A stretch of 64,000 bases of DNA, taken from the IMG/VR virus record IMGVR_UViG_3300011113_000415. One strand, given 5' to 3'. Origin of the DNA: a virus (Duplodnaviria > Caudoviricetes). Under the pieces are notes generated by a model that saw only the letters and a list, made by a program, of their open reading frames with translations, searched no databases and was not told the origin of the DNA. Numbering within the stretch: the stretch's first letter is position 1; every line of letters begins with the position of its first letter. A program made the position numbers and the translations under genes. Positions 33,174 to 37,746 of this stretch are shown here, piece by piece.

Positions 33174-33557
33174 ATGGCAACTTGGGTACTAACAACACTG
33201 GAAAAGAAAAACGTCGTAGAGACTGAGTTCTGGAGCAAGGACGGAAAAACTATCAAACGCAGTACCGGCTTTCGTTGGGGCACAGTCTATTGTGAAAGCG
33301 ATGAACGGCCTGATATTGATTTAGAGAATCCTGATGGATTAGACGTATTCAATACTGACTATGACTTTGAACTAGACAACCTAGATGATGGTTGCTGGGT
33401 AGACGTTGAATATCCTGAAGACATGAGCGAAGAAGAACAAGAACGCATGGATGAACTCTGGGAAGAAGAAGGTTACGATGCCTGGGAAGGCGAAGGCTGG
33501 TCAAACGATGACACAGAGACTTGGTTCAATGGACCATTGGGATTGGAGGAGCAATGA
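33174..33557 (+). CDS. highly acidic hypothetical protein
   Basis: about 30% Asp/Glu by hand count. Confidence 0.65.
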   Translation: MATWVLTTLEKKNVVETEFWSKDGKTIKRSTGFRWGTVYCESDERPDIDLENPDGLDVFNTDYDFELDNLDDGCWVDVEYPEDMSEEEQERMDELWEEEGYDAWEGEGWSNDDTETWFNGPLGLEEQ

Positions 33558-33874
33558 AAACACTAAATGAAGTTTGGGCACTTGCGGAATCTTTAAACGA
33601 AGAAGCACACTCTGATGCATGGGATAGTTGGATAGCCGCCGATGAGATGGAAGAGTCGGAAGAAGATGAAGATGGCACTTCAGCAGAACAACTGCGCGAA
33701 GAAGCCAGTGATGAACAGGCTGGCTACTTTCGAGACTATTACTGGGATCTAAACGCGGAAGATCAAACAGCAATCAAGCATTGGCTTAAAGAGGATGAAT
33801 CGTTTCGAGATCAGTTTAGTACTTGGTTTGGCTACGATGCATTTGAAGAAGAGTTTGACGTAGAAGACAAATAA
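33554..33874 (+). CDS. highly acidic hypothetical protein
   Basis: GGAGG RBS and ATGA overlap give start 33554; about one third Asp/Glu. Confidence 0.65.
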   Translation: MKTLNEVWALAESLNEEAHSDAWDSWIAADEMEESEEDEDGTSAEQLREEASDEQAGYFRDYYWDLNAEDQTAIKHWLKEDESFRDQFSTWFGYDAFEEEFDVEDK

Positions 33875-33878
33875 ATTA

Positions 33879-33908
33879 TTGACACAGCCACCACTTTCCT
33901 TGTATAAT
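33879..33908 (+). promoter_or_regulatory. sigma70-type promoter
   Basis: TTGACA-N18-TATAAT. Confidence 0.75.
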
Positions 33909-33914
33909 GTCTAT

Positions 33915-34080
33915 GTGCATGAGCAAGGAGATTGGTGGCGATCTAATGGTGTGAGCGGGGTGATTCGATAACCCGGGCCCGACACAACCGTGGCAGGTAG
34001 ATATAATGCCCACAAGGTTGAGACACTGTCCAAGACTTAGAAATAGGTCAAAACCGACTGATACTCGGTGTATGCTCAAG
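33915..34080 (+). ncRNA. candidate structured non-coding RNA or long leader
   Basis: ORF-free on +, GC-richer, outer stem TGAGCA/TGCTCA, several internal hairpins including a GAAA tetraloop. Confidence 0.55.
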
Positions 34081-34108
34081 TTGGAAATCACAGTGAAAGG
34101 AACGTTAA

Positions 34109-34435
34109 ATGTCTGTTAAAATAGAAGCCACTGATTCCATGCTTCAATCCCTTGACTCTCTTAGAACAACGGCCTTGCCCATGCACAAATTATATTTCGA
34201 ACTGTCAAGTGTTGACGCATGGTATGCCATCATGCGTGAAGCACGAGCACAGTTCGGGCAGAACTGGCGTTGTCAACGTCATGTCAAACGCAGATTGGAA
34301 CGTGCGCATATCTGGAATCCACCAGGCACCGCAGAGCGTGTTTGGTTTGAAGTGCCAGATCCTGCTTTTGGCACCTGGGTAGCCATTAAACATGCTGTAC
34401 GGGTAGTGGGTGCCCCAATAAATAAAGATCTATGA
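34109..34435 (+). CDS. hypothetical phage protein
   Basis: GAAAGGA RBS. Confidence 0.65.
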   Translation: MSVKIEATDSMLQSLDSLRTTALPMHKLYFELSSVDAWYAIMREARAQFGQNWRCQRHVKRRLERAHIWNPPGTAERVWFEVPDPAFGTWVAIKHAVRVVGAPINKDL

Positions 34436-36063
34436 TATTTGGTTTAGGTATCTTGGCCACTGCACTATTACTGAGTGTGGTGGCCGCTTACTACTCGGTA
34501 GCAGGTTTGACTGCTATCTTCTCAGCGGCCACGATACCAGTTATCATCATGGGTGCCAGTTTGGAACTAGGCAAAATTGTGGCCACAGTATGGTTGCACA
34601 ACAACTGGAAACGTGCCGGCATCATATTCAAACTGTATCTCATACCCGCGGTAGCATTTCTCATGCTACTGACTTCCATGGGTATCTTTGGATATCTCTC
34701 CAAAGCACACTCAGACCAAAGCCTGGTGTCGGGTGATGCTGTGGCCAAGGTTGCCATCTATGATGAAAAGATCAAGATATCCAAAGAAAACATAGATGCC
34801 AACCGTCGCGCTCTCAAACAAATGGACGAAGCCGTTGATCAGGTCATGGGCCGATCAACTGATGAAAAAGGTGCCGACAAGGCCGTGGCCATTCGCAGAA
34901 GCCAGCAACGCGAACGTGCCAGAATGTTGGCCGAAATTGAAACTGAACAGAAAAAGATAACCAGCCTAAACGAAGAACGAGCACCACTTGCGGCCGAATT
35001 CCGCAAGGTTGAGTCGGAAGTGGGTCCAATCAAATACATTGCGGCCTTGGTTTATGGCGACAATCCAGATCAAAACATACTTGAACGAGCGGTACGACTG
35101 GTCATCATCATGATTGTGCTGGTGTTTGATCCACTGGCCCTGACTCTGATTTTGGCTGCCAACAAACAGTTTGAGTGGGCACGACAAGGCACAGGAGGGT
35201 TCATACACGATGATCCCCCACCCCAGTATCCACCAGATGATGGCCCACTCACTGAAGATCAACTAGATCAAATACAAGCCAGTGCGGATCCACATCCACC
35301 CGGTTGGATGTTTAGAGATGATGCGGTCCAACCCGAGCCACCACCACCGCCCGACGATCCTATACCTTGTTACAAATGTGGCACACCTTTGGTAGACGCT
35401 CCCGGCATAGGCCTGTTCTGCCCTAACAAATCCTGTGATGTGATTGACAATGTGTCAGGAGAAGAGCCTGTTGAATTAACGGCACCAGTTAACTATCAAT
35501 TTTTGGATGAGCATCATGAACCAGACCTTCATGTGTATAATGACGAACGCTTGGTCAGTCGCTTTGACAAAATTCAAAGCGCGGAACGTCCAGGCGATTA
35601 TTTGACACCACCTGATGAAGAAACTGATGCTGAAAAAGAAGCCAAACGTCAATGGAAAAGTAAACATCCTGGCGAGACTGTGAAAGAACAAAGACGACTG
35701 CATGAAACAGGTGCAATCAACAGTTTGCCTTGGCAGGACTATATAAATCTGCAGGCCGACAATGACGGCATGCTGTTGAAGACGGGTCAATTGAAAGGCT
35801 TTGGAATTCGTTTCCCTGACAATCCTGTCAAGGGAGATTCATTCATTAGAGTGGATCAATTGCCCAGTGCTTTGTACAAGTACAATGGCATGAAATGGAT
35901 TGAAGTTGACAAAGGTCTCAGTGATCAATATGCCTATGACACAGCCTATATAGATCACTTAATTGACAAACTAACAACAGGCGAGTACGATCCTGAATTG
36001 CTGAATGACGCAGAAAGAGAACAAGTGGCACAACGCTTACAAAACAATACCAAGGGTGCATGA
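34432..36063 (+). CDS. membrane-anchored coiled-coil protein with Pro-rich/Zn-ribbon tail
   Basis: three N-terminal TM helices, long coiled coil, fourth TM, CYKC...FCPNKSC. Confidence 0.65.
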
Positions 36064-37271
36064 TGGCATCTGATTTGCACAACACCTGCAGTTTTTGCGG
36101 CAAACACAAAGACTCAGTCAAAAAACTCATAGTAGGCGAAAAAGTAGGCATCTGCAATGAGTGTGTGGATTTTTGTCAAGGTTTGTTGATTGATGATTCT
36201 CCAAGATCCACAGATGCTGAACAGACACAACCAAGAAAACTGGACCCCATAGCACTCAAACAATATCTAGATCAGTATGTGATTGGCCAAGATTCAGCCA
36301 AGATCATGTTGAGTGTGGCCATTGTAAATCACTACAAGCGCATCAACAAAACTACTACAGAACCCGAACTGGAAAAGGCCAATGTGCTCATGTTGGGCCC
36401 CACAGGTTCAGGCAAGACCTTGTTGGCCAAATCAGTGGCACGCTATCTCGATGTGCCGTTTGCCATTGCTGATGCCACCAGCATAACCGAAGCAGGTTAT
36501 GTGGGCGACGATGTAGAAAGTTTGATCACCAGATTGTACACAGCCGCTGATGGAGATGTAAACAGAACACAACGTGGCATTGTGTTTGTGGACGAAATTG
36601 ACAAGATTGCTCGCAAAGGTGAAAGCACTTCAATCACAAGAGATGTATCAGGAGAAGGTGTACAACAAGCCTTGCTGAAAATGGTGGAAGGCACTGTGTG
36701 TCGCATACCAGCCGGAGGTGGCCGCAAACACCCATCCGGAGACATGATTGAAATTGATACTAGAAATATCTTGTTCATTGCCGGCGGTGCGTTTGTAGGC
36801 TTGGACTCAATTGTTAAGAATCGTGTGCAAGGAACTTCAATTGGATTTGGTGCTCGAGTAGAAAGTGATTCAAATGCTGACCTTGTGTTGACCACGCCTG
36901 ATGACTTGGTCAAGTATGGCATGATTCCCGAGTTCGTGGGACGTTTTCCCAACTGGGTCAGTTTGCAAGAACTCACCAAACAGGATCTTGTACACATTTT
37001 AACTGAGGTCAAAAACAACTATATCGAGCAGTACCAATGGCTATTTGCTGAAGATGGCGTCGAATTGCAATTCTCAAACGATGCTTTAGATACCATTGCT
37101 GAACGCACACTTGAAAGCCGAACAGGTGCTCGAGGACTACACAGCGAACTGGAACGTGTGCTGATGCCACACATGTACAATCTCAAACGCTATTCTGGAA
37201 TGGGAATAAAGTGCGTACAAATTGATCCTGTTTTGGTAAATATTCCTACAGCACTAGAAGGAACAAATTGA
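36060..37271 (+). CDS. clpX: ClpX AAA+ unfoldase
   Basis: CSFCGK..CNEC zinc finger, [17 protein letters not shown] loop, IGF loop, TGARGL. Confidence 0.96.
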
Positions 37272-37489
37272 AACTACACGGAAGATCAGTACTGGTACAA
37301 GATGGCAACGTTGAGCGAGCCCTGCGTAAATTCAAAAAGAAAATTGCAGAATCCAATCTCATAAACGATCTGCGCGACAGAGAATTTTACGAAAAACCCA
37401 CTACCACACGCAAACGCAAAAAGTCAGCGGCTCGAAATCGCTGGCGCAAAAAACTGGCAGAGCAACAACTGCCCCGAAAACTCTACTGA
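37268..37489 (+). CDS. rpsU: ribosomal protein bS21
   Basis: [12 protein letters not shown]...[22 protein letters not shown]; TTG start; TAAATA at 37238. Confidence 0.9.
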
Positions 37490-37746
37490 TGTTTATCGAA
37501 TTCCAACTGCCCACTGGTTCTGCCGGTATGGCAGCAGGGATGGCCCTACAAAGAATACGTCGAGAACTCAAGTCCTGGAGTGATCGCTACGATATTGCCT
37601 ACACCAGCAAAACCGTAAAATACACACATCGAGTGTGTTTTGATTCGGACAGCCTGTACGATTTTTTTGTAATGAGTTGGAATCCCAAAGGCATTGATTA
37701 TTTGAATAGATATGTGGTTGTATCTGACCGAAATAATAGACCATAA
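37489..37746 (+). CDS. hypothetical phage protein
   Basis: TGATG coupling to rpsU. Confidence 0.6.
   Translation: MFIEFQLPTGSAGMAAGMALQRIRRELKSWSDRYDIAYTSKTVKYTHRVCFDSDSLYDFFVMSWNPKGIDYLNRYVVVSDRNNRP

Follow-up and report, generated by a model that had tools for sequence, protein, structure and literature searches.

The window, by which we mean the whole stretch of 64,000 nucleotides that was analysed (IMG/VR record IMGVR_UViG_3300011113_000415, a virus of the Caudoviricetes), belongs to a 334,901-bp contig. At the locus considered here, a sigma70-type promoter is followed by a stretch lacking evident genes and by an operon of five genes, p108-tm543-ClpX-bS21-orf85 (34109-37746), whose neighbouring members overlap by 4 or 1 nt and in whose interior no strong promoter or terminator was found. 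A preliminary description of the locus had seen no credible plus-strand open reading frame ahead of the operon, and this holds: none is longer than 37 aa within 33879-34108, and relatives do not keep any frame open, be it on the plus or the minus strand. The features are collected in Table 1, where the helices are those of the comparative model presented below.

Table 1. Features of the leader and of the operon that it heads (positions in the window).
Feature	Position	Strand	Remarks
sigma70-type promoter	33879-33908	+	-35 TTGACA 33879-84, -10 TATAAT 33903-08, spacer N18
P0, 5' strand (GUGCAUGAGCAAGG)	33915-33928	+	putative first 14 nt of the transcript; pairs with 34173-34186
Domain I, long bulged hairpin	33935-34013	+	covariation, permutation tests
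P1a	~33935-39 with 34008-13	+	native energy reached in 1/1000 permutations
P1b	33941-45 with 33998-34002	+	5/5 pairs compensatory
P1c	33946-50 with 33987-91	+	supported by covariation
P1d	33951-53 with 33983-85	+	tested jointly with P1e
P1e	33956-59 with 33978-81	+	tested jointly with P1d
Apical loop of domain I	33960-77	+	conserved, 18 nt
Pseudoknot, 5' strand (GGCA)	33992-33995	+	in the bulge of domain I; pairs with UGCU 34073-76
Single-stranded linker (AAGGUUGAGA)	34014-34023	+	highly conserved; columns (near-)invariant in A1 and A3
Domain II, four helices	34024-34095	+	ends 1 nt before the Shine-Dalgarno sequence
P2	34024-29 with 34090-95	+	0/1000 permutations
P3	34030-33 with 34081-84	+	about ten different complementary strand pairs; 0/1000 permutations
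P4	34034-39 with 34044-49	+	covaries
AAAA junction	34050-53	+	3' of P4
P5	34054-57 with 34065-68	+	covaries
GUAUGCU	after P5	+	34073-76 within it are the pseudoknot 3' strand
Open translation-initiation window	34096-34114	+	19 nt, between P2 and Pc; read from sequence
Shine-Dalgarno AAAGGAA and AUG	GGA 34099-101; AUG 34109-11	+	inside 34096-34114
p108 (ORF 34109), 108 aa	34109-34435	+	first operon gene; stop overlaps next start (ORF list)
Pc, irregular 13-bp hairpin	34115-34156 (34115-33 with 34138-56)	+	codons 3-16; RNAalifold, covaries
P0, 3' strand (CCUUGCCCAUGCAC)	34173-34186	+	codons 22-26 (A-L-P-M-H) of ORF 34109
tm543, 543-aa membrane protein	34432-36063	+	overlapping stop/start
ClpX	36060-37271	+	Pfam; overlapping stop/start
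Ribosomal protein bS21	37268-37489	+	Pfam Ribosomal_S21, E 2e-18; starts 4 nt inside clpX stop
orf85, 85 aa	37489-37746	+	1-nt overlap with bS21

The first gene of the operon encodes a small protein whose relatives are annotated only as "hypothetical protein". A tblastn search with p108 against 50,697 phage records gave no match, that is, no relatives in cultured phages, and nothing was found for it in Pfam or PHROGs. Its AlphaFold2 model (mean pLDDT 81.5) contains a ferredoxin-like alpha/beta core from residue 25, preceded by 24 residues of low confidence that are probably disordered. Fold searches (Foldseek against the PDB and AlphaFold DB clusters; VIA-align wide) returned generic ferredoxin-like matches only, with Z up to 6.7, and a fold as generic as this one gives no specific sign of RNA binding. 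A conserved arginine/lysine-rich helix is also present, and with this core and helix the protein could bind nucleic acid.

The organization downstream of p108 is conserved. Among 62 loci retrieved from IMG/VR with the 108-aa product, tm543 follows p108 in 61 (the remaining locus ends before tm543) and clpX is found in 58; the order p108-tm543-clpX holds wherever a locus reaches that far, and the upstream genes vary. ClpX, Hsp20 and ClpS are encoded in the operon and its neighbours, and the order clpX-S21-hsp20 is kept in three distant near-complete genomes of 320-343 kb. Residues 29-244 of tm543 have relatives (25-39% identity), all annotated as hypothetical, in many cultured jumbo or large phages, including Pelagibacter phage Mosig, Xanthomonas phages Xoo-sp13 and XacN1, Salicola phage SCTP-2 and Ralstonia phage RsoM2USA. 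Just 5' of the promoter, at 33174-33874, lie two small, very acidic open reading frames of 127 and 117 aa with many D, E and W residues, whose presence varies among relatives, unlike that of the downstream operon.

The promoter reported in the preliminary description, TTGACA-N18-TATAAT, was borne out: it agrees with the consensus at 12 of 12 positions, and the same promoter is found 6 or 8 nt 5' of a conserved GCAUG in all 45 distinct relatives listed. Since this spacing between a near-consensus promoter and the invariant GCAUG is conserved, we place the transcription start at about 33915. A promoter of its own is a feature that the region shares with independent small-RNA genes. No terminator-like site occurs on the plus strand between 33915 and 34109; with RNA contigs that continue to 34134 and 34170 and a closing helix inside the ORF, the RNA seems to lack a defined 3' end ahead of ORF 34109.

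The RNA defines a family that could be followed in uncultured phages from two sides. Besides the search with p108 as query, a covariance model was built from 23 sequences; it finds a single copy in the window (33904-34111, 199.5 bits) and a single copy in each of 52 loci. Scanning by three short RNA motifs only, followed by filtering with the model, yielded 16 further contigs, each with a p108 homologue immediately 3'. The search from the gene and the search from the RNA motifs alone thus agree that the RNA always precedes a p108 homologue. In total, about 70 IMG/VR contigs carry the RNA, in one copy each and always 5' of a homologue of ORF 34109, and three genomes that are 92-99% complete (320-343 kb) contain one copy apiece. 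The RNA is therefore known solely ahead of p108 homologues, in one phage lineage and at one copy per genome. The reverse does not apply, as three loci (L039, L058 and L062) have p108 without the RNA, which is therefore dispensable for the protein; two of them, L058 and L062, also lack the N-terminal stretch of about 25 codons that bears Pc and the 3' strand of P0.

Conservation is higher in the RNA than in the genes that follow it, with nucleotide identities of 84-94% for the RNA, 78-85% for the p108 coding sequence and 68-82% for clpX. Between close loci, identity in the intergenic stretch amounts to 83-92%, and about 70% is retained even where the protein falls below 50% identity. No match to Rfam 15 was obtained in the whole window, nor in 33850-34150 at E<=10, nor in eight diverse member loci; a blastn search of 33600-34500 against the 50,697 phage records gave no match either. 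The idea of an unannotated, promoter-driven RNA with several helices thus passed the Rfam check, and its distinction from a tRNA was confirmed by ARAGORN, which found no tRNA or tmRNA genes in the window. This is a real, well-supported family of structured leader RNAs, apparently undescribed. Structured cis-regulatory leaders are a known kind of element, whereas the architecture and the setting of this one are new. A homologue of p108 with 81% identity was also met in a 39-kb contig (NZ_JBBAKG010000057.1) binned in a Haliscomenobacter MAG. The contig probably comes from a phage and entered the bin by accident, so that it gives at best a weak host hint; because the binning of phage contigs is unreliable, we rejected it as host evidence.

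Folding of the single sequence shows no excess stability over shuffled sequences (z +0.35 for 33915-34108 and z -1.29 for 33915-34188), and therefore the evidence for structure is comparative. In the alignment of the first model, 97.1% of the cells were paired and 19 of 29 pairs showed compensatory changes, as against 23-39% paired cells and 4-5 compensatory pairs in slid controls. For helices missed by the automatic consensus, a cross-pairing test was applied, in which duplex energies of each 5' strand with the 3' strand of its own sequence were compared with those obtained with the 3' strands of other sequences, over 300-1000 permutations. These permutations support P0, P1a, P1d/e, P2, P3 and the pseudoknot. 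As judged from the aligned sequences, the element spans approximately 33915-34186, about 270 nt. It comprises two domains joined by the conserved linker and tied by the pseudoknot, with many invariant unpaired bases in the junctions, and a long-range closing helix.

The comparative model departs in several places from the pairings drawn in the preliminary description from the window alone. Of its hairpins, GACTTA/TAGGTC (34034-49) and ACCGA/TCGGT (34053-69) are real, covary and correspond to P4 and P5. The outer pairing TGAGCA/TGCTCA, on the contrary, is not conserved, its two strands being engaged elsewhere: the 5' end with 34173-34186, and 34073-76 with 33992-95. In place of AGATTG/CGATCT, the compensatory changes favour P1b. 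The proposed GGGT/ACCC stem had the correct 5' strand and the wrong partner, since this strand covaries with the second CCCG copy (33978-81) to give P1d/e (z -9.6, 0/1000 permutations), and the copy in the loop yields z +0.9. Neither GTGGCA/TGCCCAC nor CAACC/GGTTG was retained, because CCAC pairs with the first GUGG (33935-38) and ACCGU with AAUGG. The size of about 165 nt given for the RNA had to be revised as well, for the element closes inside the ORF.

The pseudoknot joins a GGCAGG bulge of domain I to the 3' part of domain II. Its A95-U73 pair is replaced by U-A in L048, L067 and L142, and also in L083 by one alignment; in L124, U73 is likewise A, although the alignment has no 5' base there. 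The outer pair is G-U in some sequences and G-C in others, and the native energy is reached in none of 1000 permutations, the effect being small. RNAalifold had at first proposed a different closing helix, GCAUG/UAUGC, which was discarded: it never varies, it breaks in GUAAGCC variants that keep the pseudoknot, and for the 5' end a much better partner, with covariation, is available within ORF 34109. The exchange of A-U for U-A in the pseudoknot also speaks against it. At the end of the domain I apical loop stands a near-palindromic CCYRGG (here CCCGGG), which varies together with the sequence of the stem next to it. A kissing dimer or a tertiary contact might be formed by it, and no partner was found for it.

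The partner of the 5' end is the 3' strand of P0, within the p108 coding sequence. P0 consists of 13 bp and one mismatch in the window and is 12-15 bp long in all but one or two of the 52 distinct loci, with many compensatory changes. Its mean energy is -23.7 kcal/mol for native strands and -20.0 +/- 0.36 kcal/mol for permuted partners, none of 300 permutations reaching the native value. The ribosome-binding site of the first cistron thus lies within or beside the fold: the Shine-Dalgarno sequence and the AUG are enclosed by P0 and bordered by P2, with its end at 34095, and by Pc, with its start at 34115, the Shine-Dalgarno sequence beginning 1-3 nt past P2. In the region of Pc, RNAalifold on 18 loci gave 16 pairs, 13 of them in Pc, and 10 of the 16 are changed on both sides.

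This overlap is also visible in the codons. Synonymous diversity is 0.29-0.51 bit over codons 1-27, compared with 0.95-1.17 bit downstream; it is low in the stretch of Pc and lowest, 0.29 bit, in codons 21-27. Codons 1-27 are a clear example of a coding region shaped by selection for RNA structure. Residues 1-24 (34109-34180) combine low model confidence with suppressed synonymous variation and are absent from the two RNA-lacking loci L058 and L062; it looks as if this N-terminal extension is kept for the RNA structure and not for the protein.

A divergent subgroup departs from this arrangement. P0 is kept at the homologous codons in five of seven of its loci, and about 45 nt intervene between the RNA core and the start codon; a Shine-Dalgarno sequence close to P2 is thus no universal feature. 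In the loci concerned (L041, L043, L051-L053, L057 and L059), a conserved spacer with GGAGAUCUCU stands between the core and the start codon; as this spacer aligns with the first 10 codons of the main group, the start codon has moved within the element.

Signals of alternative pairing and of further long-range contacts are weak, and we do not claim any such contact. In a screen of 91 segment pairs, the 5' segment with the linker and the apical loop with the Shine-Dalgarno region each gave z -2.9, and in a screen of coding windows the 5' strand of P3 with coding positions 30-46 gave z -4.1, but only about -1 kcal/mol. The same P3 strand is complementary both to the Shine-Dalgarno-like 3' strand of P3 and to the real Shine-Dalgarno sequence. 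It shows partial covariation (GACCU with AAGGUU; GUCCUU with AAGGAC), and its pairing with the real Shine-Dalgarno sequence has z -2.3 (5/500 permutations, among 91 tests). This weakly hints at a switch with an anti-Shine-Dalgarno strand. Mimicry of the 3' domain of 16S rRNA, an idea arising from bS21 in the operon, found no favour: nhmmer with the family profile gave no match to a full 16S rRNA, and the best local alignment scored 22, compared with 20.2 +/- 2.0 for shuffles.

Metatranscriptomes provide some information on expression. In a freshwater study (X1), a 243-nt contig is 100% identical to 33928-34170, and nothing else reaches at least 95% identity among the 1.4 kb compared. The X1 run contains 0.89 of the words of the element, as against 0.26 for the 901-nt stretch around the element; RNA runs with shares of 0.04-0.26 were not counted as evidence. 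The identical contig starts where the P0 5' strand has its last paired base, and it stops 3 nt short of the 3' strand; these ends could reflect processing at the P0 helix or, at a depth of 2.5, chance. A second study (X12) gave a variant contig covering 33972-34134, which differs at 34057 and 34065, two changes that compensate each other in P5. At their shallow depth of 2.5-3.75, the metatranscriptome contigs give a hint, not proof, of transcription into ORF 34109.

The preliminary description had left the choice between an independent noncoding RNA and a riboswitch-like leader for ORF 34109. The second comes closer, because there is no terminator, P0 lies in codons 22-26, the RNA-library contigs enter the ORF and the RNA is never found without the gene; a free-standing RNA of about 165 nt finds no support. 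The leader embraces the ribosome-binding site of the first gene and most likely controls the translation of p108. In its fuller form, our reading is that a structured 5' leader acts in cis as the translational operator of an early phage operon comprising p108, tm543, ClpX, bS21 and orf85, and we hold it with middling confidence.

According to this proposal, host RNA polymerase would initiate at about 33915, and the first 14 nt of the transcript would later pair with codons 22-26, closing a domain of about 270 nt. The closed domain would consist of the two conserved sub-domains tied by the pseudoknot and of the 19-nt window with the Shine-Dalgarno sequence and AUG. This window would be squeezed between P2 and Pc, and loading of the 30S subunit would need both to be melted, so that a factor stabilizing the fold would lower p108 initiation; an effector that loosens or stabilizes the fold could in this way set p108 translation. 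The 4-nt and 1-nt stop/start overlaps may relay the effect by translational coupling to the membrane protein, ClpX and bS21. The conserved, tertiary-looking core would be the docking site of the effector, most likely a protein, which the strict linkage to one gene favours; p108 itself would be the first candidate, by autogenous control, and a small ligand is less likely. Moreover, the fully paired 5' end probably also shields the mRNA from decay that depends on a free 5' end.

The RNA heads the only conserved operon with ClpX and bS21 in these uncultured freshwater phages of 320-350 kb, and it is a likely control point for the remodelling of host proteostasis and translation by a giant phage early in infection. 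Structured leaders of such size and conservation are rare, and new classes have usually revealed a new ligand or regulatory protein. A bolder version of the proposal, which we consider doubtful, would make the RNA a sensor of a new class, responding as a riboswitch or to a protein, with its aptamer-like core clamped by P0. As P0 joins the 5' end to codons 22-26, such a sensor would be foldable only on untranslated mRNA. It would thereby link the signal of an effector with the traffic of ribosomes and gate the phage-encoded ClpX and bS21 module, the first 26 codons of p108 mainly encoding RNA structure. With about 50 distinct sequences and strong covariation, the RNA lends itself at once to structure probing, to binding assays and to cryo-EM.

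Other explanations share part of this evidence. The paired 5' and 3' strands of P0 recall the terminal helix that is typical of stable RNAs, and the RNA might be excised from the transcript to function in trans or, together with p108, as a ribonucleoprotein. Its strict linkage to p108 would agree with this, as would the only fully identical contig in X1, which nearly coincides with the stretch enclosed by P0. However, the excised product would include the ribosome-binding site and 21-26 codons of p108, and P0 is short for RNase III, whose classical sites are double-stranded stems of about two helical turns, longer than 12-15 bp. The ends of the X12 contig differ (33972-34134), those of X1 may be due to chance at such depth, and p108 occurs without the RNA in three loci, so that we regard excision as rather improbable. 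A new riboswitch class for a metabolite or an ion, in which domains I and II with the pseudoknot would be the aptamer and P2, P3 and the Shine-Dalgarno region the expression platform, would account for the complex pseudoknotted fold with its many invariant junction bases. It would also suit the position in the 5' UTR beside the Shine-Dalgarno sequence, the covariation of a conserved aptamer-like RNA directly 5' of ORF 34109 and the two complements of the P3 5' strand with their partial covariation. Nevertheless, riboswitches of the known classes as a rule serve several genes of a pathway in different taxa, and this RNA is restricted to one gene family in one phage lineage, once per genome; furthermore, an operon of ClpX, bS21 and a membrane protein suggests no ligand, and the alternative-pairing signal (z -2.3) is weak. 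A riboswitch is therefore quite improbable in our opinion.

A passive mRNA element would dispense with any effector: either a folding scaffold that protects the 5' end or a thermosensor like those of rpoH and cspA, giving fixed or temperature-dependent translation of a proteostasis operon. The 5' end paired from about +1, the pairing of the 5' region with the coding region as in rpoH and cspA mRNA, and the presence of ClpX, Hsp20 and ClpS all accord with it. Simple helices would suffice for such a role, though, and the invariant junctions, the pseudoknot and the 18-nt apical loop would be left unexplained; we judge it distinctly improbable. That there is no RNA element and that the region is conserved for a small protein gene is hardly credible. 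The candidates for this would be plus-strand micro-ORFs or the minus-strand ORF 33876-34091, which the preliminary description had named as the possible conserved feature. In the window, as in many close relatives, the region is indeed crossed by a stop-free minus-strand frame, but indels change which frame is open, and 1-5 stops occur in about two fifths of the family, mainly in divergent members. The substitutions are compensatory across helices and not codon-periodic, the minus-strand ORF has no PHROG match, and no plus-strand frame is kept.

Among known systems, the leader proposed here would work most like the autogenous operators that embrace an initiation region, namely the double pseudoknot of the E. 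coli alpha operon bound by S4, the rpsO (S15) pseudoknot and the leader pseudoknot of T4 gene 32. With them it shares a pseudoknotted 5' leader, folded over or beside the Shine-Dalgarno sequence and AUG and extending into early codons, and the service of one specific operon downstream, with the proposed spread by translational coupling. It differs from them in having no sequence or Rfam relation, in its much larger size (about 270 nt), in its two domains, in the clamp from the 5' end to codon 22 and in the lack of 16S rRNA mimicry. In the rpoH and cspA mRNA thermosensors, a 5' part pairs with the coding region of the same mRNA and closes a domain around the start codon. Long-range pairing between 5' and coding regions and genes related to stress and proteostasis are common to both, whereas in the phage leader it is the extreme 5' end, and not the initiation region, that pairs with the coding region, and its conserved junctions and pseudoknot go beyond what a simple melting device would require.

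Pseudoknotted translational riboswitches resemble the leader in their conserved aptamer-like core of several helices with invariant unpaired bases directly 5' of the Shine-Dalgarno sequence, and in the possible competition between anti-Shine-Dalgarno and anti-anti-Shine-Dalgarno pairings; unlike them, it matches no Rfam riboswitch at E<=10 and is confined to one gene in one phage lineage. With the lambda N leader and the T7 RNase III sites it has in common an early phage transcript in which distant leader segments pair, with effects, proposed ones in the present case, on translation of the first gene, although P0 has only 12-15 bp and its 3' strand is coding sequence. Thousands of unnamed candidate cis-regulatory RNAs upstream of phage genes have been described in an IMG/VR survey by Fremin et al. 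(2023; PMC10690425), which also cites T4 gene 32 and whose main text mentions neither jumbo phages nor ClpX. Those candidates come from the same data source as the phage leader, and its motif might be among them.
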